Source: Candidatus Latescibacterota bacterium
Lineage (GTDB): Bacteria > Latescibacterota > UBA2968 > SICM01
DNA length: 64,000 nt
Assembly: GCA_965217865.1 (NCBI GenBank)
Contig: CBDCJO010000002.1
Span: 576,001 to 640,000 of the forward strand
Reading direction: 5' to 3'
Shown here in pieces: positions 8,045 to 22,639 of this stretch (within the stretch, counting starts at the first letter, position 1; every line of letters begins with the position of its first letter). The notes beneath the pieces were generated by a model, which saw only the letters and a list, made by a program, of their open reading frames with translations, ran no database searches and was not told the origin of the DNA. Position numbers and translations under genes: made by a program.

Positions 8045-11000
8045 ATGGAACGGACCCCGGAATTGACGCCCGACCGGATACGAGCGATTCGCGAAGGCAA
8101 GCTTCATCCAGCGAGTTCTCGGGTGCCCGCCCCGTTCGAAGTGGAATCCGACGACATCGCGTCGTTTGGGCCTCCTGCGTTTCCCAATCTTCTGCGACGA
8201 CTCCTCTCTGCTGAGGCCCGAGAGTACGGCCTCCCCCAAGACGGCATCCGCGTCGCCAGCAACATCCATGTCCCCGATGGAGGGGAAGACGGGCGCATCT
8301 CATGGAGGGGCGGTCCCGAGCGCACTCCATTCCTGCCGTCCCGGCTATGCCAGTTTCAGTTGAAGGCCGGCAAGATATCGCCCGCTCGGGCGGGCAAGGA
8401 TGTGCTGACGAACGAAGCCGAAGTGAAGACGATGGTCCGTTCGGTCCTCGAGCGGGGCGGAAACTACATCATGCTCTGTGTGCAGCCCTATAACCAACGG
8501 CAGGTAGAGGCGCGGCAGCGTGGTATCTGTGACGCTCTGGCGAAGGCCGGATTGTCGGTCCTGGATCACCTGATCGGCTTTTGGGAAGCCAATCAAATCG
8601 CCGCGTGGGTGAATACCCACCAATCGGTTGCCCTCTGGGTCAGGGAAGAGGTGGGGCTCGGGACGCCAGGCGGCTTTACTTCGTGGAACCATTGGAATGG
8701 CCGGAGTGAGCACTCTGTGCCATGGGTAGACGATCCCCGACTGGCCGACCTGCGCCGCACGATTCGGGACAAGGTGACGGAGTCCGGCGCGGTTCTCCGG
8801 GTGGTCGGATTGTCGGGCATCGGCAAGTCCCGGCTCTGTCTCGAAGCTCTGAAGACGGTCGGCGAAGACGAAATTGCCAGCCGCTCGCTTCGGGACTTCG
8901 TAATGTACGCAGTACAGTCTGAAGTGGGTGCGGAAGCGATTCATCCCCTCGTCGAGAAACTGGCCGTCTCCGGCGGACGCGCCGTCGTGGTCGTGGACGA
9001 CTGCGACGCGCGAGGACATGCCATCTTGGCCGGGATGGTGTCGCGCCCGGGGAGCCGCCTCTCGCTGGTCACCATCGATAATGAGATTCCCTCTCATATC
9101 GATGCCGCCACCATCAAGATCGACGAAGCCCCAGCGACTGTCATCGAACCCATCGTCGACCATGCCGCCGCGACACTACAGGATGTGGACCGGCACCGCC
9201 TTGCACGCCTCTCGCGGGGATTCCCGGAAGTTGCAATCCGAATCGCCAAGGAATCTGATACGAGGCGGCGATACCTAACCTATCCGGCCGACGACCACCT
9301 CATTGACGAATTCGTCTTGGGTCGGAGGCCAACGGACCGAGCGCTATTGCTCCAATCTGCCCAACTGCTCGCCGCGTTCGGGCCGGTAAGAGTAGAGCCT
9401 ACGGCAGAGGCACACCTCGGCGCGTTTCAAACGGTCGGAACGGAGTCCTTAGCTGAAGAACATCTCGCGAGAATTGCCGACCTTGGTCGCCATCTGACCC
9501 GCGATGACCTGTACGCAGGAATCCAACGACTCGTCCAACGAGACGTAGTCAAGCGTAGAGGAGGACTCGGGACGATTCAACCGCGCCCAATCGCCGTCAG
9601 GCTCGCGGAACGACAGTGGAAGGAATGGGACAACAGGAAGTGGGACCGCGTGCTGTCGGGCGACATCGGCTCCGACCTAAGTGTCTCGGCGGCCCGGCGC
9701 CTCGCTGAACTGAACGCTTCGGAGGTAGCGAGCAACGTGGTGGATCACGTCTGCCGGGAGAGCGGGCACTTCGACCGAGTCGATGAGATTGTCCTTCCAG
9801 GTCGTGCGGAGGTCCTCTCAGCCCTCGCCCAGATCAATGCGGATGCCGTCGCGGAGCTCATCGGCCGTTCCCTGGATCGCTTGGGCGACCTGGGGCAACT
9901 CGGAGACGGTGTTCGCCGTCCTATCGTCCGTGCGCTGAGAACGATTGCCTTCCCCTCCAGCACATTCATGGTCGGGGCTCGTATGATGCTTCGACTGGCG
10001 GTCACCGGGAACGCGTCGGGGGTATCGGCAGCAGCATCACGTCCCTTTGTGGAACTCTTTTCCCCGGTCCTTGGGGGCACCGAAGCCGACGGCGGCGCTC
10101 GACTGCTGTTCCTCGACGAGGCCGCTGACACGAGTCACCAGGCGCAGTTGAGCCATGTCGTCGAAGCGCTGGTCGCCGGCTGCAGCGTGGGAGGGTACTC
10201 GCGGACGGTCGGCCCGGAGATTCAGGGCTCCCGGAGAGCATTGCATCCCTGGTATCCGAACTCGAAACAGGAACTGGCCAGGTACATCGCGGGATGCGTG
10301 AACCGCCTGGGCGGACTCGCGGCGAGAGACGACGATGTGGGGGCGAAGGCCCGTTCCGATCTCGGCGGGGCAATCTCGTCTCTGATGTGCCACGGCTTCG
10401 TCGAAGCGGTCGAGGAGGCTATCCAACGAGTTGTCGGTGCGGGCTGTTCCTGGTCACTGGCGCTGAGGCAGTTGAAGGCTGTCCTCGAGCATGACTCCGA
10501 GCTCATCGACGACAAGACGGCCGATCGCGTTCGGTCCCTGGTCGACAAACTCGAGCCGACGAGCCTTCGAGAACGGGTACGGGTGTTCGTTACCGAGCCT
10601 CCGATGCCGGGGTTCATGGAAACGGAATTGTCGATATCGGCACAGTCTGAGCGTCATCGCGCCATCGTGCTTGCCTTGGCCGACGAACTCCTAGGGGAAT
10701 TACCGACCCTCAGGGAACTCCTGCCTGAGCTCAGCAGAGGAAGGCAGTCGATGGCGGACGAACTCGGAGAATCGCTCGCGAAGTCTGCGCCGTCACCGCT
10801 TGAGTGGCTAGAGCCGATTGTTAAGGCCGTCGTGGGCATACCCACGTCCGAACGTAACTATGGCTTGCTTTCTGGATTCGTCGCGGGTCTCCCAGCGCGA
10901 TTCCACGATGAAGCCGAGGCTTTCAGGACGAGGGCGGTAGGATCACCCGATCTCGCCCCGGCATTTCCCAGGATTTGCAGGCACGCCGGTCTCACCCCGA

Positions 11001-12046
11001 AGGACATCACCCGCGCCATAGACGCTCTGGATCGAGGCACTCTGTCGCCGTGGGACCTGCACCACTGGGCCTTTACCTGGGTGCTCGACAAGGTGTCCCC
11101 CGCCACCGTGGCGCTGCTGCTTGACGCGATGCTCGACCATAGCGCCCCGTCCTTTGCGCTCGCGGTCACCATCTTGGGCCGGATTCTCACCGATGAAGGA
11201 GAGACGACCGAGGAGTCCGGACCGGACATCTCCAAGCTCGCAGATTTTCGGCCCCAAGTTCTAACGATGGCCCGGAACGCCGGTCGTTGGAGCAGGACGG
11301 AATCCAAGCCTCCACGGAGCCTAGCGGGATCCGGAATCGACCTGAACGTGACGGACTACTACTTCGAGAAGATTGTACTGAGGATGCTGGCCAAGGGTCG
11401 CGAGGATTCCAACGCTCGCGCGACGGCTCTGGCCCTCGCTCGAACCCTGGCTCACGGAGACCACCACGGTTGGCTCAATCCGAGGAGCACCAAGCCGACT
11501 TCTGTGCTCACCAGAATGCTGGCCGGTTTTCCGGAGATCGTGTGGCCGCTCATCGGAGGAGCCATCGTGGGGAATCGTCGGTTCGCAAGTCGCATGAGGT
11601 ATGTTCTCGGGCGTCCGTACACTTTCGGCCGCGACGTCAGGCCACCGATCCTGGACGTTCCTGAAGACACGCTGTTCGCATGGTGCCATGCCAACCCCGA
11701 TGGCGCTCCCACCTTCCTGGCGCAGTGCTTGCCGATTCTATCGCCGGAAGACGACGATGCGGAAGCCGGCTTCCTCCATCCTGTGATGTCCCGACTCTTA
11801 GACGAGTTCGGCGAACGCGACGATGTACACCAAGCCTTAGAAAGCAACATCCATACCTACAGCTGGTCCGGTTCTTCAGCCAGCTACTATCCCCGCTACA
11901 GGGAGCCCCTCGAACGGCTTTGCACCCACCCAAAGGCCGGAGTGCGGCAGTGGGCGGAGAAGATGCGTGGCCAAGTTGCGCGCTGTATCACGCGCGAGAC
12001 GATCCGAGACGAGGAACGGGAGGCAAAGGGACGTTGGCTCTGTTAG
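8045..12046 (+). CDS. Nuclease-like N-terminus, P-loop (STAND-like) NTPase and long helical C-terminal region, 1333 aa
   Basis: PDGGEDG...QLKAG (D...QxK nuclease-like motif), Walker A GLSGIGKS, Walker B VVVVDDC, GFP motif. Confidence 0.7.
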   Translation: MERTPELTPDRIRAIREGKLHPASSRVPAPFEVESDDIASFGPPAFPNLLRRLLSAEAREYGLPQDGIRVASNIHVPDGGEDGRISWRGGPERTPFLPSRLCQFQLKAGKISPARAGKDVLTNEAEVKTMVRSVLERGGNYIMLCVQPYNQRQVEARQRGICDALAKAGLSVLDHLIGFWEANQIAAWVNTHQSVALWVREEVGLGTPGGFTSWNHWNGRSEHSVPWVDDPRLADLRRTIRDKVTESGAVLRVVGLSGIGKSRLCLEALKTVGEDEIASRSLRDFVMYAVQSEVGAEAIHPLVEKLAVSGGRAVVVVDDCDARGHAILAGMVSRPGSRLSLVTIDNEIPSHIDAATIKIDEAPATVIEPIVDHAAATLQDVDRHRLARLSRGFPEVAIRIAKESDTRRRYLTYPADDHLIDEFVLGRRPTDRALLLQSAQLLAAFGPVRVEPTAEAHLGAFQTVGTESLAEEHLARIADLGRHLTRDDLYAGIQRLVQRDVVKRRGGLGTIQPRPIAVRLAERQWKEWDNRKWDRVLSGDIGSDLSVSAARRLAELNASEVASNVVDHVCRESGHFDRVDEIVLPGRAEVLSALAQINADAVAELIGRSLDRLGDLGQLGDGVRRPIVRALRTIAFPSSTFMVGARMMLRLAVTGNASGVSAAASRPFVELFSPVLGGTEADGGARLLFLDEAADTSHQAQLSHVVEALVAGCSVGGYSRTVGPEIQGSRRALHPWYPNSKQELARYIAGCVNRLGGLAARDDDVGAKARSDLGGAISSLMCHGFVEAVEEAIQRVVGAGCSWSLALRQLKAVLEHDSELIDDKTADRVRSLVDKLEPTSLRERVRVFVTEPPMPGFMETELSISAQSERHRAIVLALADELLGELPTLRELLPELSRGRQSMADELGESLAKSAPSPLEWLEPIVKAVVGIPTSERNYGLLSGFVAGLPARFHDEAEAFRTRAVGSPDLAPAFPRICRHAGLTPKDITRAIDALDRGTLSPWDLHHWAFTWVLDKVSPATVALLLDAMLDHSAPSFALAVTILGRILTDEGETTEESGPDISKLADFRPQVLTMARNAGRWSRTESKPPRSLAGSGIDLNVTDYYFEKIVLRMLAKGREDSNARATALALARTLAHGDHHGWLNPRSTKPTSVLTRMLAGFPEIVWPLIGGAIVGNRRFASRMRYVLGRPYTFGRDVRPPILDVPEDTLFAWCHANPDGAPTFLAQCLPILSPEDDDAEAGFLHPVMSRLLDEFGERDDVHQALESNIHTYSWSGSSASYYPRYREPLERLCTHPKAGVRQWAEKMRGQVARCITRETIRDEEREAKGRWLC

Positions 12047-12102: not shown

Positions 12103-13345
12103 TCAGCAACCGTTTCGGGCAAGTAGTCCGTCCAGCGCCGCGTCGTCCGTGATGTCGACAGGCCAGCCGTAGGCGGCGGCCACGGCGGCGTCCAGTTGGT
12201 TGTGCACGTCGCCGAGCCACTGTGGCCGGGCGTTGTAGAGGTTGGTCAGGGTCCGCTTCTTGAGCGCTATTGCAGCCTTCTTGTCACGCGGGACCGGGCG
12301 TGGGGGATAGCCGGGAACGGACTCCTCGACCCATTCCACCCACTCGGGCGGGTTGAGCCAGCGGTCGCGGAGTTCGACGAGCCGCCGTGCCGCCGAAGCG
12401 ATGGCCACGACGCGCGGCTTTTCCGCATATTCCGCAGCGGGAATATTGGGAGAGAGACCATCCGGGAAGGGGAAAGTCTCGAAAGTCGTGGTCGGGGTGT
12501 AGCGCGGACGGTCCTCCAGGCTAGTGCCCATGCGGAGCGGCCAGACCTCGTGGAAGCGGCTGTGTAGGATCCCGAACGTGGTGTCGTCGTCGCGCACGAT
12601 GACGATTAGTTGGCTGTCAGGCCGGATGCGGGCGTCGAGCCAAGCGAAGAGGCGGTGCTTGGCGACACGCGGCGTTGCAAGGTACCGCGCCAGTCCGTCA
12701 AGCGCCTTCCACATCCCTTGTCTGGGCTCGACGTGCCGCCACCAGTTGAGGCGGTAGGATTCGCGACGGTTCCGTTGCCGCATCGGATATACTTTTTCCA
12801 AGGTGTGCTGGAACGGAGCCTCGTACAGGGCAGCCTCCTCCTTGTCCATGGTCCAGCCGAGGCGCCGCGCCTTCGTCAAATCGACGCCAGCCCCACCGCG
12901 CCGCGCCGTCAGATCGGTATAGATCTCGTCCACCGCCTCTCCGTCGAGGCGGCGCTCCGGTGTGAGGTCGTCGTCCGACTGCGAGAAGCACACCAATGAG
13001 ACGCGCACGGCCGCGCCATCGATCACCCAAGGCTCGTCGCTCCAGGCGTCGAAGATTGGCCTGCCACCAGTCGCCCTTTCAAGCGCCCGGCAGTTTGCAC
13101 CACCCCGGATGGAGTTGGTCGCAACCAAGCCAACCCGCTTCGAGGTCCCTCCGCCTAAGGGTTCTCCGGCCTTCACGAACCAGAAGCAGACCAGATCGGC
13201 CTCGCGGGGCACCCGGCCCTCGTACACCTGGGAACAGGGTCGAGACGTATTCCTCGCCGAGGTTGGTGATGAGCAGCTTGCCGCCCAGGAACGGCGGGTT
13301 ACCGATAATGACATCGGCCTCGGGCCACTGCGGCTCCCCGCCCTC
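12103..13345 (-). pseudogene. MmeI-like type IIG/IIL restriction-modification enzyme, C-terminal fragment
   Basis: IIGNPPFLG in a shifted frame near 13290; ADLVCFWF, GLVATNSIRGG, RYTPTTTFETFPFP, RTLTNLYN, LDAAVAAAYGW. Confidence 0.8.
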
Positions 13346-15281: not shown

Positions 15282-15589
15282 CACTTACCTTCTAAAGAGG
15301 GTGCGATCCATGGGGAGCTAATATCGAGTTGGTGGGCCAGGTGAGTTTCTTTCAGAGCGCGCCAGCGATCATCTTCTGTGGGGGCTTGTCTCAGAGGGGC
15401 TTGGGAGAATGGACAGACTGATTGGGGGAAAGCATGAGCGTTGAGCCAATCAGCATTATTGACCGCGATCGTGGCGGTGGGAGTGGTCTTGGCCGAGGCG
15501 GCGATGTTCGCCTGTCTGAGCTTCGCCCGCCTGCAAGGCGTCGAGGCTGATCGCGGGCGGCCCTAACTGCGGTGGGAAGGGCGGTACGA

Positions 15590-16187
15590 ATGTGCGTGTT
15601 TCTGGCAAATTGTCCATATTGCGGCACCAAAGAAGTTGCGTTCACGATTCTCTGTGAAAATCACTTGGATGGATCTCTCTGGGATACATTTGCTAAATGC
15701 GGTTACTGCGGCCATGGGATTGTCGCGACATTTAACGCGTTCGACGGGCAGGCTCCAAGTGCAAGCCTCACACTCCATCTTCTGGGAATTGCTCCGCCGC
15801 TTCCCGACACCGGTGCGCCGGACTATACTCCTGAAAATGTCGCGCGCTTCTTCGAGCAAGCTTATTGATAACCTGCCTAAAAACTGGGACGCCGCCGGCA
15901 GTATGTTCCGCAAGGCACTGGATACTGGCTTGAAAAGCAAGTTTCCCGAGATGAAAGGCATGTTGTACAATCGTATAGAGGAGGCTGCCAAGAAACAGGA
16001 TTTGACGCCCGCTTTGGCCGAATGGGCGCATCAGATACGGCTTGGCGGCAATGACGCCGCACATGAGGAAGAGCCAATTTCTAAAAATGATGCGGAGGAA
16101 TTATCCAAATTTACCAGGCTTGTTTTCCTCTACTTGTTCACACTGCCTGGCATGCTGGAGGAAGCTCAAAAGCGAACCGGAGAATAG
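15590..16187 (+). pseudogene. Zn-ribbon plus DUF4145 (HEPN-like) protein, frameshift near 15860
   Basis: CPYC...CGYC, then MFRKALD...IRLGGNDAAH in another frame. Confidence 0.7.
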
Positions 16188-16229
16188 ACCGGTGATTTTG
16201 GAGGAAGCATGGAGCAGCGAGGGAATCAA

Positions 16230-16440
16230 CATACGCTGGCGGGCGTCGCAGATAAGGGGCTGTTCATCACCACAGGAGGGTTCACCAAGGATGCGGAGCG
16301 CGAGGCCGTGAGGGACGGGACGCCAGCGATTGATCTGGTCGACGGTATCGATCTTTGCATTCTTCTGAAGGATCTCGGACTGGGTGTGGGCACTGGGGCC
16401 GTCGAAGTTGTCAAGCCGAGGCCGGAATTCTTAGGGCCTT
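16230..16440 (+). pseudogene. mrr: Mrr-type restriction endonuclease C-terminal fragment
   Basis: ADKGLFITTGGFTKDAEREAVRDGTPAIDLVDG. Confidence 0.75.
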
Positions 16441-16499
16441 TGAGACGCATAGCCGCACCTCACCGATCCCGGCGTAGGTCATGGAGCGGCGTTCTATAG

Positions 16500-16680
16500 C
16501 CGGAAAGAATGACGGTTTCGCCCGTATCGTATCGACCAATAACATCAAGAGCAGAGAATTCGCAATCTGGACGCGCTGGAACCGTTGGGTTATATCTGGA
16601 AGCCCCTCTACGGATCCGAGCCACCGGGACACAGCACCAGCGCCGAGGGCAGCAGTTCCTATCGCCAAGCGATTGACCCA
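16500..16680 (-). pseudogene. Dam-like (D12 class) adenine methyltransferase fragment
   Basis: VSRWLGSVEGLPDITQRFQRVQI and ALDVIGRYDT, split across frames. Confidence 0.5.
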
Positions 16681-17109
16681 CTACAGCCCCTTTTTTATTA
16701 AGAGAAAGCTGCGAACCGCATAAAGAAAGCCAAAAATCGAGCATTAAAGAAGTATGTTAATAGCCCGGTCTTGTTTTTCTTGGGTTTGAACGTCTGTTAG
16801 GATTTCGTCGGGTTTGGGGGGTTCGCCTTCTCGAAGGGCGTCCTCGACATCACTCCACTCGCTGAAAAGGCCTCCCGCGTGTTCGGGTTGCCAAAGCTGG
16901 TCCCGCTTTGATCTCTAGCGGCTGCGGGTAGAACCCGAACTCCTTACGCATACTCTTTAGTCTCCCATGCTGGGCAGGCACCCACAGAGCGTGTCACTTT
17001 TCGCTTTGTTCTTTGTGAGGGGATCCGATCGAAATTTGAGGAACAACCCTGTGCAAAGTAGATTGCCCATGCACCGGAGCCCGCGATGCGGTGCCAGGAC
17101 GAGAAGCGC

Positions 17110-17360
17110 AGTCCCCACAGAGCCAGTAGAGCGACGTCAATCATGGCCTCTTGCAGCTCTGCCTCCGGCCATGTCTCTCGATAGGTTAAACGGGGCATGT
17201 CTGAAAAGTCCCTGTAGGGATAACCGTAATTTGCCGGCCAAACTTCTCTTAACGAATTGAGGTACTCAGACGTATAAACCTAGTCCCACCAGACTCTCAA
17301 ATAATCGCGTTTGAAAGTGGTTTCAAACCTCCGATGGCGGTCAATTCCTGTGCCGGCACC
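17110..17360 (-). pseudogene. Third ABC permease copy, C-terminal fragment
   Basis: DFSDMPRLTYRETWP...IDVALLALWGL is similar to the 3' end of 5146..6249. Confidence 0.65.
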
Positions 17361-17539
17361 TCTTATGGAGACGGCCGGAAACTTCACTGAATTCCAACTT
17401 TCAGTGTCTCAAAATTGTTGACATGTTCCGTTCTGTGAGGTGAAAAATGAGCCTTCATGCGGGTCTTCGCTCTTGAACAGATTCGTCCCTACCTACAATT
17501 CACGGGTAGTTGCGTCCCACGATCTGTGATAATCTGGTA

Positions 17540-18043
17540 TTATCTGTGGTGCTTTTTTGCCGGATTAAGGTTAGCCACTCGTCTGCATCGGTTTTCAGTA
17601 AGAAATGTTTCCCTTTCGGCGTCCGTCCCCTTAACTGGATATAATTTTGTCTGCTCTCCAATTACCTTTGGAACGACATCCTTGAAGTCGTGCTTCAAAT
17701 CATTATCGTTCGTACAAAGAATTTTCGCCTTATAAGCAATGGCCAATGCAAGTGTCTGAGAATCATTCGACCTTAAGTTAAATCCCTCAATTGCATTCCT
17801 GGCTTCATCTATTTTATCAAGAGATGCCCTAATCGCTCTTCCTCTGCTTTGCCATGTTTCGAGCTTCTTCATGAAGCTCTTCGTCTTACGGGTTTCATCG
17901 CCAAGCTTCCCGTAAACTGTATAACACAACGTTCCATGCCCTTGCCCGATCCATGCTGTCAAGTAAGGATCTCTTTTTTTGCCGACTTTATCATCTAAAA
18001 CGATATTTGACACGTTGGTGTCCAAGATAAGCCGTTCACACAT
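17540..18043 (-). CDS. PIN-like domain protein
   Basis: LILDTNV at the N-terminus, SNDSQTLALA and LCTNDNDL acidic PIN-type motifs. Confidence 0.6.
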   Translation of the reverse strand: MCERLILDTNVSNIVLDDKVGKKRDPYLTAWIGQGHGTLCYTVYGKLGDETRKTKSFMKKLETWQSRGRAIRASLDKIDEARNAIEGFNLRSNDSQTLALAIAYKAKILCTNDNDLKHDFKDVVPKVIGEQTKLYPVKGTDAERETFLTENRCRRVANLNPAKKHHR

Positions 18044-18056
18044 GCGGTGTGCCTTA

Positions 18057-19292
18057 TTAAAATCCCAGGAATTCCTCGGTTTCACGCTCAAAAAATTCTC
18101 GATAATTCGCGGGAGCATCTATCAAATTCCCCTCCTCATCGATTTTAATCTCGTGAATGACCACGTCATTTCCTCTTTCCCTTTGTTCAAACCAAAAAAT
18201 TTCTACGTCGCCGGGTGTTACTTCACCCTTTCTCACACAGATACATAAACGATTAATGATATGGTCGGCATGGGTCTCGATTACATAGCGTCCTTCGGAC
18301 TCAGCTATAAACTGCGCGAGCAATGCCTGTGCCATGGGATGAAGGTGTGTTTCAGGTTGTTGCATCAAGATTGTCGCTCCGGAATCTTCGCCAATCAACT
18401 TCAGCATCGGTAAAACACAGTGTACGCCAAAACCGACATCCACAATGTTACGTCTACGGCCGAAAACGGTAACCTCAAGTGCGTAACCTCCACCCGGCTC
18501 GCGTTGAATATCAATGTCCGAGAAAAGTTTCAGTTGGCTTCCAGCTCTGGCAATGCGTTCCCGGGCCACTTCTAATTCATGCGTGCGGTCAAACCCACCC
18601 GGAAATAGCGGGTGATTAGTGTACTCTCTGCGAGGAGACAAAATTTGCGGAGAAATCGTGCGGATCTTAGGCTGCGATGCCGGAAGGGCTGACGACAATT
18701 TGGTGAGATGATTAACAAGACGCACGTAATGAGTTATTTCGGAATCCGAAGATTTATACCGCTTTACTTTTTTTAAAATCCCAATGTCGCCTCCATATGG
18801 CAATTGTTGATACCTCACCGCCATACCAAGCCATTGAGAGAACTGCCTGTAAGAAACGTTATTGGAATCGAGATTGAAAGCAAACGACGGGCTGGTCAGT
18901 TTCCAAATCCCCGCAGACCGCACGCGTTCAAATTGCAACTCCGGCATTCCTTGAGGCTTAACCATTGCCCTTTGTTCACAGAGGGTTCCATCCTTCGAAG
19001 CAAACTCGAACCTCATGTCTACTCCGTCAACACAACCACCTAGTATGAACGAGTCGGACTCCTGCCTCGCAATCGTTTCAAAAGTTCCCATGTCGATGAG
19101 ATCAATTTTAAATGGGTTGTAGGAACGTTCTTGGTTGCACGCCAAATGAGCAAATACAGAGCAACAGGCCAGAAAGGTAGTTTTTCCAGTGCTGTTTTCA
19201 CCTACAAGAAGCGTGATTCGAGGCAGTGTGACTGTTTGTTCGCCCGCAAAACAACGGATATCTTTAAGGGAAAGTTTGGTGATGGATGTCAT
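18057..19292 (-). CDS. AAA_15/AAA_21 ABC-type ATPase with DUF3696-like C-terminus
   Basis: Walker A GENSTGKT, DVGFG signature, QQPETHLHP, IETHADHII. Confidence 0.85.
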   Translation of the reverse strand: MTSITKLSLKDIRCFAGEQTVTLPRITLLVGENSTGKTTFLACCSVFAHLACNQERSYNPFKIDLIDMGTFETIARQESDSFILGGCVDGVDMRFEFASKDGTLCEQRAMVKPQGMPELQFERVRSAGIWKLTSPSFAFNLDSNNVSYRQFSQWLGMAVRYQQLPYGGDIGILKKVKRYKSSDSEITHYVRLVNHLTKLSSALPASQPKIRTISPQILSPRREYTNHPLFPGGFDRTHELEVARERIARAGSQLKLFSDIDIQREPGGGYALEVTVFGRRRNIVDVGFGVHCVLPMLKLIGEDSGATILMQQPETHLHPMAQALLAQFIAESEGRYVIETHADHIINRLCICVRKGEVTPGDVEIFWFEQRERGNDVVIHEIKIDEEGNLIDAPANYREFFERETEEFLGF

Positions 19293-20755
19293 TTGAACAA
19301 ATCCAGGAATTTGCGCAGGACTTCCGTGAAAAGGCTGCGCCAGCGCGTGGTGCCAAGGTCGTGAGAGCTCGGCTCAATGAACGGATACTGCGACGTGTCT
19401 CCCGCCCCTATTCGGTCATGTACTGAACAATGTGGTTTGCATGTCAAAGAATCAAAACGCTCCTGGTTTCCTCGGACAAAGTAATACGTCGTCTTAGCGC
19501 CTTTAGCAGGCCACCAGTCCTCAGCAATCAGGTAGCGGACCATTTCGATCACCAGCAAGCTACCTAGATTGGCGCTAAACGGGAAGACATTCTGATTGCG
19601 CAGTGTGACTGAAAACTCACCGTGCTGTTTCAGATATTCAGGGTTGTCAAGAGATCTATCCATCTCTTGAACAACCTCTGAACTGGAATACTGGCCGTCG
19701 CAACGGAGACAACGGTTGCCCGGCCCGGCGATTGACACGGTCCAATTTGCATGCGCGAGACGGCCGTCAGTTTTGTTATCTACAAACACGCCCCCAAAGA
19801 TGACCGGTATGCAGTGCGCATAGGCGATATGGTTGAGGAGGTCTTTTGCAAGGGGACGATCAACGCACGAGAACAGAAGGTCGCAGTCTAGCGCAGCTTG
19901 ATAACTGTAGTTATTCTGGAGATTGCCGACAATCGGAGCCACTTGGAAATCATTAGCGGTCGCCGCAAGCTTTGCGTGCTTTGCTGCGAGTTGCACTTTG
20001 TGAGTACCGATATCCCGGGGTGCCGCATTGAGAAGTCTGTCAAGATTATGCGTTTCTATCTTGTCGGAATCGATCAGAGTCAGATTCGCTATACCCATCC
20101 TTGCAAGCGCTTCTGCTACAACGGCTCCCACACTACCAAGACCAACAATACCGATACTGAGTCTTGCCATCCGTTGCTGCATCGCCAATCCCCAACTGTC
20201 AATCGTACGCTGCAGTTGCGGGCGTCGCCCATATGCGGGAAACATTGAATCATTGTACATCACCTTCATCGTGCCACCGTCCACGACCCGCACCTTGTGA
20301 CACCAAATGGGCCTACGCTGCTTCCGTTCGATCCAAAAGCGGGCACTCAGACTGCCATCTGTTCCCATTGTCAAACCGACAAGCGGTAACCCCGTGACTG
20401 CCGCAACCGGAGCAATTCTGTCCCGTTCCGCTACGATGTCTTCGTCGCTCATTCCTTGCCAGCCAACCGAGAGGTGGTTATGCATGAACGCGAGGCCCAT
20501 GTGCTGGTCAAGGGCTAGGCGCAAAGACCGGGAGAGGTATTCGGAGTCGAAAGCGGCATTGCCATGAAGCGTCCGCTCTCCTTCAATCGGCTTGATGATG
20601 TCTGAAACAATTGCGGAATATCTGGCTTTTCCCGTACTGGGCCGCCAGAGGCAAAAGCAGAGATCCTCCTGCCGTTTGGACGCACGGGTGTGCTGCAACA
20701 GATGGTCGCAGGTCTGTTTGTAGGTGTGCCAGGGAAGGACCGCATCATAGCTCAT
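19289..20755 (-). CDS. JAB-like peptidase fused to ThiF/E1 ubiquitin-activating-like domain
   Basis: N-terminal E...HNH...S.ED JAB-like motif; [26 protein letters not shown] and a C-terminal C...C. Confidence 0.8.
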
Positions 20756-20940
20756 ACATCGGCCCAAAATCGACGCACGTGTTTGTTAAGAAAAGTCTTC
20801 ATGTTCTTGTGTTCGACCGGTAGGCTATCCCAGAAATCACTTGGCGGCACGCTGAACACACGCCACTTCGCCTCGCCCTCGTCGTGTGTCGAATGCGCTG
20901 TCCGATTGAGGGGCGGCGCATTGCAGATGTGGATGAAATT
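20752..20940 (-). pseudogene. C-terminal half of a probable prokaryotic E2-like protein
   Basis: Hand translation [10 protein letters not shown]...[14 protein letters not shown]...[16 protein letters not shown]; its stop overlaps the JAB-E1 start (ATGA); 5' end is cut at a dispersed repeat. Confidence 0.45.
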
Positions 20941-21239
20941 ACGCCCGCACCGTCGAGGCGGAAACCATATGAAGGACCGGGTACAGCCTGGAATGGAGGG
21001 CGAAGGCCGAGAAAATGGAACACATGAAAAAGTGGAACAGCTTGGCCGAAGCCGTCCGCCTGGTCAACGGCGCCGGGATCCCCTCGGCCTTCGCTCTGGA
21101 AGGCGCACACACCGACAGGAATGGGCACGGTGTAATCATCTCCGACTCCGGGGGGTGTTGGATGCGCCTTCGGGCGATCGGGCCTTAGGAGCCGTATCCT
21201 TCTTCCGGCTATACCAGACACCGGTGAGCTCTTCGACCT

Positions 21240-21335
21240 GTTGGGAGGCCTGGAAATGTGATCGAAACGAGAAACACAGAACCGTTGATTGGCAGTTCAC
21301 GACCACCGACGCCCGCATCAAACTGAAGAAGCCGC
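21240..21335 (+). mobile_element. IS630-family transposase C-terminal remnant
   Basis: AW...RN......[15 protein letters not shown]. Confidence 0.65.
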
Positions 21336-21339
21336 TAGG

Positions 21340-22639
21340 ACGTTACGACATCACCGGTGACGTTCTGGTAACGTCGCTTTCTACGACCGCGGCGGCGAGC
21401 GTGCTGGTTCTGTACCTCTGGCTGCTGGGCGGGCTTCTCGGCATCTGGTCGAAGACGGGCGCTGCGCAGGCCTTTGCCGAGTGTATGGCGCGCCGATTCG
21501 TGACCGGACCTCGTTCTGTCAAGCTGGTCGCTTGGCTGCTGGGGATCGTGTTTTTCCAGGGAGGAACGGTCAGTACGGTGCTGGTCGGAACGACGGTCAA
21601 GCCGCTGGCGGACGACCAAAGAGTCAGCCACGAAGAGCTTTCCTACATCGTGGACTCCACCGCCTCTCCGATCGCTTCGCAGTTGGCGTTCAACGCGTGG
21701 CCAGGCTACGTTCAGGCCTTTATCTACGTCGCGGGGGTCGGTTTCCTGGCGACGGAGACCGATCGTGTGCTGTTCTTTTTCAAGAGCGTGCCTTTTTGTT
21801 TCTACGCGATTTTCGCCGTGCTGGGGACGTTTCTGCTGAGCATCGAGAAACCGCTCTTTGTCGGGAAACGGTTGATGGCGGCCATCGACCGCGCTCGGCA
21901 AACAGGCCGATTGGACGCGCCCGAGGCAACTCCCCTGGCGGCCCGTGAACTCCACGACGTGCAGGTGCCGGAAAACTACAGGCCCCATCTGCTCGACTTC
22001 GTTTTACCCCTTGTGGTGCTGATCGCCATCGCGATCGGAACGTTTGTCGCTTTCGGCTCGCCTAACGTGTTATGGGCTTTCGGGTGTGCGCTCCTTCTGT
22101 GCGCGTTCATGGCCCTGGGCCGCGGGATGGCCTTGAAGGATCTGATCGACGGGATCACCGACGGGATGAAGGGGGTGGTCGGCGGCTCGGTCATTCTCCT
22201 TCTGGCCATCACGATCGGCGGCGTGAGCAAAGAGGCCGGCGGAGGCGCTTATCTCGTCGATCTGTTGAGCGCCCGCATTCCGTTCTGGGCGTTGCCCGTG
22301 ATGCTCCAGGCGTTGACGATCGTGATCGCTTTTTCGACCGGGACGAGTTGGGGGACCTACGCCGTCGCGTTTCCGCTGGCGATGCCGCTGGCCTGGGCCG
22401 TTGCCGGAGCGAACGGTCTGGCCCATCCGGAATTCTTCATGACGCTTTGCTTTGCAGCGGTCATGGACGGAAGTGTGTTCGGCGATCAGTGTTCTCCGAT
22501 ATCCGATACGACCGTTCTGAGTTCGATTTCCACGGGGTGTGACCTGATGGATCACGTCAAGACGCAAATCCCGCAGGCGAGTATGGCCGCCGGGTTGGCC
22601 GCGATCTGTTGGACGCTCGCGGCCCTGCTCTTCGCATAG
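21340..22639 (+). pseudogene. NhaC-family Na+/H+ antiporter, 5'-truncated
   Basis: [40 protein letters not shown]...DHVKTQ. Confidence 0.85.

Follow-up and report, generated by a model that had tools for sequence, protein, structure and literature searches.

The window analysed here is a 64,000-nucleotide stretch of a Candidatus Latescibacterota genome (contig CBDCJO010000002.1, positions 576,001 to 640,000 of the forward strand), and the locus under study is an operon within it in which the remains of a ubiquitin-like conjugation module precede an ATPase and a PIN-domain protein (Table 1). The four co-directional genes described in the initial annotation were all confirmed as minus-strand frames, namely an E2 remnant, a fusion of a JAB peptidase and an E1 (JAB-E1), the ATPase and the PIN-domain protein, as was their spacing: the E2 stop overlaps the JAB-E1 start and the JAB-E1 stop overlaps the ATPase start, in both cases as ATGA, and 13 bp separate the ATPase from the PIN gene. 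Pfam assigned ThiF to the JAB-E1 and AAA_15/AAA_21 to the ATPase, with DUF3696 below threshold in the latter (19 bits vs a cut-off of 22) and PIN just below threshold in the last protein, the start of which was set at a Met-Cys common to all 39 aligned homologues. The E2 remnant frame has no usable start for a full domain, and each of the four genes is single-copy in the window's genome. A promoter and terminator scan of the operon gave signal at or below shuffle level, no RNA holder is listed for the operon, and no relatives were found in the viral contigs searched.

Table 1. Features of the truncated operon and its upstream junction (window coordinates)
Feature	Position	Strand	Remark
E2 (UBC-fold) 3' remnant	20752..20936	-	residues 64-124 of ~124
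JAB peptidase-E1 fusion	19289..20755	-	488 aa, intact
ABC-type (AAA_15/AAA_21) ATPase with DUF3696-like tail	18057..19292	-	411 aa, intact
PIN-domain protein, predicted ribonuclease (RNase)	17540..18043	-	167 aa, intact
Multi-copy repeat, interior segment joined to mid-E2 gene	20937..21195	none	marks rearrangement

The upstream end of the operon is broken at 20936/20937, where the E2 gene runs into the inside of a repeat that has 17 matches in the genome. Other genomic copies of this repeat extend leftward with a different shared sequence, indicating rearrangement into the repeat interior rather than a clean insertion. Contigs from four runs (two studies) extend without a break from the operon across the junction as far as 20966, covering 30 bases of the repeat, a reach one base below the bridging threshold, and one of the four runs is possibly the window's own source. 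The upstream fragment corresponds to the C-terminal 61 of approximately 124 residues of a family E2 (hhalign probability 99.7) whose model best matches BubB, in agreement with its original assignment to the E2 fold, and it is the only E2 match in the genome. A search of this one genome, 96% complete, found no cognate ubiquitin-like protein (Ubl), and relocation of the Ubl gene elsewhere in the genome was therefore rejected. As first proposed, the Ubl gene and the 5' half of E2 were removed by rearrangement at this junction, and the native promoter presumably went with them. Because the Ubl and half of the E2 are gone, the window copy is a remnant, non-functional as a composite, and cannot itself be a working composite. 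The flanks at 16200-17600 and 20937-21700 are mosaics of short multi-copy repeats, and the genome gives the impression of heavy rearrangement.

JAB-E1 belongs to a large family: of 7998 proteins scored, 2982 matched at E 1e-20. Relatives of the locus were collected by pattern scans with a 42-row alignment, yielding 65 GTDB loci and 18 metagenome loci in which neighbouring genes were called by iterated profiles over all six frames; the scan patterns were derived from close homologues, so the locus set is biased toward one clade. Among the GTDB loci the ATPase lies beside the related JAB-E1 in 63 of 65 and PIN is present in 61 of 65, the four exceptions being one contig end, one decayed locus and two distant loci containing only the core of Ubl, E2 and JAB-E1. 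Intact relatives carry the upstream Ubl and have the order Ubl, E2, JAB-E1, ATPase, PIN, with the complete set of five in 56 of the 65. The ATPase was also found in 10 of the 18 metagenome loci, several of them redundant. Junctions are close, with gaps of ≤30 bp at all 60 scorable E2-E1 junctions, in 47 of 55 scorable loci between E1 and ATPase (mostly overlapping) and at 44 of 46 scorable ATPase-PIN junctions; genes flanking the five are not conserved. The ATPase-PIN pair is inverted in L014 and separated from the core by an insert in L041, 1.3 kb away, and frameshifts occur in L011, L028, L067 and L069. The unit was found in seven phyla (Acidobacteriota, Pseudomonadota, Rhodothermota, Gemmatimonadota, Binatota, Spirochaetota and Latescibacterota), and many of the genomes bearing it have record names of what we take to be sponge-associated lineages. 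In a less biased survey of the window's phylum JAB-E1 was detected in 14 of 168 genomes, and the ATPase-PIN pair adjoins it in three of these, the window and records identical to L016 and L017. Conserved linkage across the GTDB loci rules out chance adjacency in a repeat-riddled genome, and the combination of Ubl, E2 and JAB-E1 with ATPase and PIN is a conserved unit, which supports the initial proposal of a composite.

To follow the history of this linkage, trees were constructed as quick builds, midpoint-rooted and supported by the Shimodaira-Hasegawa-like approximate likelihood ratio test (SH-aLRT) only. In each tree a single branch sets the linked proteins apart: for JAB-E1 38 linked rows, drawn from 64, against 19 core-only rows (SH-aLRT 99), for the ATPase 57 against 18 standalone (SH-aLRT 100) and for PIN 49 against 16 (SH-aLRT 99). 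Over 41 complete loci, 18 of 22 well-supported E1 splits are in common with the ATPase tree, and E1 and ATPase distances correlate with a rho of 0.88 at mean identities of 58% and 43%, respectively. These single clades and largely matching trees indicate that core and pair met once, in one ancient joining, and then moved between phyla together by horizontal transfer. Examination of 20 lower-scoring ATPase places identified one second five-gene copy, one broken orphan and 18 standalone ATPases, and a phylum-wide ATPase search returned 25 matches, four of linked type, three of which lie within the unit. The fourth is L131, where all that is left beside the ATPase is the tail of an E1 and a truncated PIN; the other linked-clade ATPase found without the module, in L101, is interrupted by a stop and is without a PIN, and both are thus decayed. 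This scarcity of intact linked-type orphans fits dependence of the ATPase on the module and is inseparable from co-inheritance. A 401-genome sample of another phylum added one new ATPase-PIN pair, of standalone type.

The JAB domain of the window JAB-E1 has residues E30, H92, H94 and D106, which are invariant in 42 rows, and the motif was observed in 75 of 80 E1 frames, and of the five misses four are frames that are incomplete or disrupted and one carries HAH. A single ThiF domain fused to JAB contains GxGxxG, the family-invariant adenylation Arg (R240), a zinc-type site (C349/C352/C439/C443) and a crossover loop with a Tyr (Y374) and no Cys, as in all 75 scorable loops. BubCD is the best and only full-length PDB match (E 9e-20 with the single sequence, 1e-27 with the profile). 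A sulfur-carrier role was rejected, as ThiF/MoeB models scored far below cut-off and the neighbours are E2 and Multi_ubiq-like genes. The E2 remnant is without the YPxYPPH motif of the family and keeps a near-invariant late His and the invariant Ser (S92, in 39 rows). A model of the complete E2 of L007, whose intact operon is closest to the window, with a predicted local distance difference test score of 94.7, has BubB as its best structural match (Z 9.3, root-mean-square deviation 3.6, 114 aligned), ahead of eukaryotic E2s; this fold call rests on a second structural aligner, as neither the E2 nor the PIN model gave a Foldseek match at E 0.001.

The Ubl of the relatives resembles the Multi_ubiq family, and a search of PDB sequences with its profile found nothing meaningful. 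Among 83 Ubl matches, 52 stop at a TPVA-type motif (with a Ser end in a distant clade), 22 continue into unconserved tails of 2-13 residues, seven run in frame past the motif into E2 and two are broken. A conserved TPVA followed by unconserved tails or by E2 is characteristic of an end processed by JAB, which appears from these sequences to be placed at Ala and not at Gly. Maturation at a Gly five residues before the end is unlikely, given that the downstream TPVA is conserved, that some core-only Ubls are without that Gly (several have no Gly near the end at all) and that the resulting tail would be too short for the E1 site. An AGxxAxID insert is present in 64 of 66 linked Ubls vs none of seven unlinked.

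The window ATPase has GENSTGKT as Walker A and reads QQPE at the Walker B position, as do linked and standalone ATPases alike, suggesting that hydrolysis may be slow. Its best PADLOC match is Menshen NsnB (E 2e-35, residues 279-405 only), and weak matches to AriA and PtuA cover motif regions alone. A conserved insert distinguishes linked from standalone ATPases and, with the linked Ubl insert, is a candidate contact surface. PIN homologues are single-domain proteins of 155-170 residues in which D8, E50, D94 and D119 are invariant and D113 nearly so, all being present in the window copy. The original PIN assignment is upheld by the ranked VapC/PIN structural matches of the PIN model, a Pfam PIN score just under cut-off and these conserved residues, whilst PIN relatives gave no family-wide match against PADLOC. 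As it keeps its acidic residues, folds like VapC in the model and has no second domain, PIN is probably the RNase itself. A complex prediction of ATPase, PIN and Ubl from L016 scored 0.13 vs a mark of 0.32 and was used neither for nor against an interaction. PINs of both linked and standalone type have the Met-Cys start and a second conserved Cys near the C-terminus, a possible disulfide or metal site. The standalone pairs (L103-L120), with QQPE in the ATPase, form a two-gene family that is common in these genomes; its PIN relatives matched no PADLOC system, and it may represent an undescribed two-gene defence or toxin-antitoxin unit.

The closest known relative of the tagging half is Type I Bub (6E.1/DUF6527; Citrobacter BubAB-BubCD-BubE), with which it shares the order Ubl, E2, JAB-E1, a JAB-E1 fusion with an intact JAB metal site, a crossover-loop Tyr without Cys, a UBC-fold E2 with an invariant Ser and a Ubl that is either free or E2-fused. 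However, the Bub E2 has a His two residues past the Ser where Ser-x-Pro is found here, the Bub Ubl matures at Gly and not, as appears here, at Ala or Ser, Citrobacter BubCD is without CxxC whereas E1 here has the four-Cys site, and ATPase and PIN occupy the place of BubE. BubE (DUF6527, PF20137) was matched in 15 of 51 genomes and never within ~49 kb of a locus. The type 6e arrangement comprises a core of Ubl, E2 and JAB-E1 and a metal-binding protein now called BubE, the accessible part of that account including no ATPase or PIN (Iyer et al. 2006, PMC1779556). According to the header of its Table S1, the published Bub catalogue (10.1101/2024.11.21.623953) took DUF6527-containing operons as its starting point, and it would on that account have missed this BubE-less family. 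The initial annotation had likened the module to both Bil and Bub, and the likeness to Bub stands whilst the distinguishing features of Bil are absent. BilABCD also encodes Ubl, E2, JAB and E1 in one operon in which JAB trims the pre-Ubl (Millman et al., 10.1101/2022.05.11.491447; Chambers et al., PMC10557695), but its JAB is separate from E1, its E1 has two adenylation domains and a catalytic Cys in contrast to the single ThiF domain without a loop Cys, and it employs a Cys E2 and a Gly-ended Ubl, neither of which holds here.

For the effector half the closest system is Menshen, where likewise an ABC ATPase with a deviating Walker B (NsnB) precedes a protein of PIN fold (NsnC); NsnB has a DUF3696 tail, for which the window ATPase scores below threshold. 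The earlier comparison with PARIS (AriA-AriB) and Septu (PtuA-PtuB, as in retron-Septu) holds insofar as an ABC ATPase is paired with, and there controls, a nuclease; the AriA and PtuA matches are weak, and the effectors of those systems are TOPRIM-like AriB and HNH PtuB rather than PIN. Retron-Septu is a precedent for placing a sensor module in front of an ATPase and its nuclease partner as an addition. Menshen differs in having a ParB-DUF262 sensor gene, NsnA, whereas here JAB-E1 lies upstream and the tagging module is in the sensor's place; no NsnA was found among 101 flanking frames of 30 loci and no DUF262 among 30 selected frames, most of them beside standalone pairs. NsnC, moreover, combines an inactive PIN with a C-terminal nuclease, in contrast to the single-domain PIN with its acidic residues retained. 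NsnB dimers are predicted to grip the PIN-like domain by their DUF3696 tails, like PtuA-PtuB and AriA-AriB; in Septu and PARIS the ATPase-nuclease pair acts as an effector under regulation, and for Menshen the same is predicted (PMC12065111). The unit is thus a Type I Bub-like module joined to a Menshen-like effector pair, and a member of neither system.

We give about an even chance to a reading of the five-gene operon as an abortive antiphage switch, with Bub-like conjugation as sensor and ATPase-PIN as killing arm. The JAB domain would cut the pre-Ubl behind TPVA and free an Ala end, as the end patterns suggest. By extension from Bub biochemistry, E1 would adenylate this end and hand the Ubl, as an oxyester, first to Tyr374 and from there to the E2 Ser, such Tyr (E1) and Ser (E2) residues having been shown to carry Bub conjugation (Ye et al., 10.1101/2024.11.21.623953). 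An ATPase dimer might hold PIN by its DUF3696-like tails, in the manner of AlphaFold models of Menshen NsnB-NsnC. On infection the clade-specific insert of the ATPase could read Ubl conjugates, or the ATPase or PIN could itself be tagged, and the conjugate signal would release or activate the RNase and arrest the cell. A narrower proposal, held more tentatively and at somewhat worse than even chances, is that of a third Bub-like kind in which an Ala-ended Ubl is passed as Tyr/Ser oxyesters and the tag is read by an ABC ATPase to unleash a PIN RNase toxin; if true, bacterial Ubl signalling would here address a cell-death effector, as opposed to direct sabotage of phage proteins.

Several observations weigh against the antiphage switch, for which we infer both cooperation of the halves and function. 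Its conjugation chemistry is borrowed from Bub, a weakness because Y374 aligns ~5 residues before BubCD Y370 in the sequence alignment and E2 is without the Ser-x-His of BubB, all 69 linked E2s having Ser-x-Pro (one core-only E2 copy, in L091, has Ser-Arg-His). The ATPase tree contradicts three of the well-supported E1 splits; after a single joining the 63 loci do not count as independent, and simple co-inheritance would also produce matching trees and inserts specific to the clade. In the window's phylum 11 of the 14 JAB-E1 genomes have the core but not the pair, as do 8 of the 18 metagenome loci, and the pair is found without the core, with PIN beside 17 of 18 standalone ATPases. In the window itself ATPase and PIN are intact though the Ubl is gone. 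At E 1e-30, and without a background control, the 101 frames flanking 30 loci included a PADLOC-matching neighbour for only seven of these loci, and protection against phage by Bub operons has not been demonstrated according to the accessible part of PMC13373217. The antiphage role is suggested by family resemblance together with modest genomic context, to which the PD-Lambda-4 A-like gene and the restriction fragments of the window also belong.

Much of this would also be expected of two independent defences sharing an operon for co-regulation and joint transfer, with the Ubl module tagging phage or host proteins on its own and ATPase-PIN sensing its own trigger. Core and pair each occurring alone, a single origin that accounts for all linkage, the survival of the window pair and the inverted or distant pairs of L014 and L041 all suit such an arrangement. 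However, no intact linked-clade locus was seen to swap or drop the pair across deep divergence and seven phyla, conservation does not extend to genes beyond the five, and both orphaned linked-clade ATPases are decayed; we regard independence as unlikely, though a serious contender. Rather improbable is cooperation in the opposite sense, in which constitutive tagging keeps the ATPase-PIN toxin off as a guard or toxin-antitoxin, or a response of the unit to general stress such as DNA damage. Bub operons are described as lying under DNA-damage regulators and as potentially serving in stress responses (PMC13373217; 10.1101/2024.11.21.623953), genes read by motif as helix-turn-helix (HTH) and metallopeptidase lie upstream of distant core-only loci, and survival of the window pair without Ubl is compatible with a guard, since the deletion probably took the promoter too. 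Against this, sister-clade standalone ATPase-PIN pairs are tolerated without a Ubl module, so the ATPase alone likely restrains PIN, and in profile searches the ATPase comes closest to antiphage proteins. That the core does not conjugate proteins at all, the Ala-ended Ubl being only adenylated or a scaffold and E2 a binding domain, would suit the missing terminal Gly and an E2 with neither Ser-x-His nor a Cys at the active position, but is very improbable given invariant E1 Arg and Tyr, E2 Ser and JAB metal ligands and the processed conjugation end pattern of the Ubl.

The initial annotation knew of no description of this combination and none was found by a full-text literature search (PMC7544218 and PMC12885553 being outside its coverage), nor is such a pairing mentioned in the accessible parts of Gong et al. 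(10.1101/2024.11.21.623966) or Chambers et al. (PMC10557695); the five-gene combination is apparently unpublished. For the question of what Bub-type conjugation does and which proteins it targets, the unit offers a built-in readout, growth arrest, with ATPase and PIN as two obvious candidate targets of tagging, making the question directly testable. An Ala- or Ser-ended Ubl, if true, would widen the known chemistry of Ubl activation.

Elsewhere in the window, a 1333-residue protein at 8045-12046 (+) is a full-length PADLOC match to PD-Lambda-4 A (E 5e-80), and beside it lie an MmeI-type restriction fragment and an Mrr fragment (12103-13314 (-) and 16209-16499 (+)). A zinc-ribbon frame overlaps a DUF4145 frame at 15572-16187 (+), as if derived from one frameshifted gene. 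The window's genome (G000) has five DUF6527 matches (C1:577759-579630; C2 near 184700, 525900, 2457900 and 3539900), several of them behind E2-E1-like genes, so that it also carries Type II Bub-like operons. Among core-only loci, Ubl is duplicated in L090 and L093 and Ubl-E2 in L091. A convergent conserved gene of ~350-410 residues with no Pfam match follows in five of the six loci L090-L093, L123 and L124, with a co-directional TIR/SEFIR gene instead in L123. The distant core-only loci L081, L082, L084, L087 and L088 encode Ser-ended Ubls and have upstream HTH and/or metallopeptidase-like genes (CapH/CapP-like by motif), with a kinase gene as well in L082 and L084. In P0131, a 728-residue relative, JAB-E1 is fused to a hydrophobic C-terminal domain, probably membrane-spanning, which hints at other effectors attached to the JAB-E1 core.

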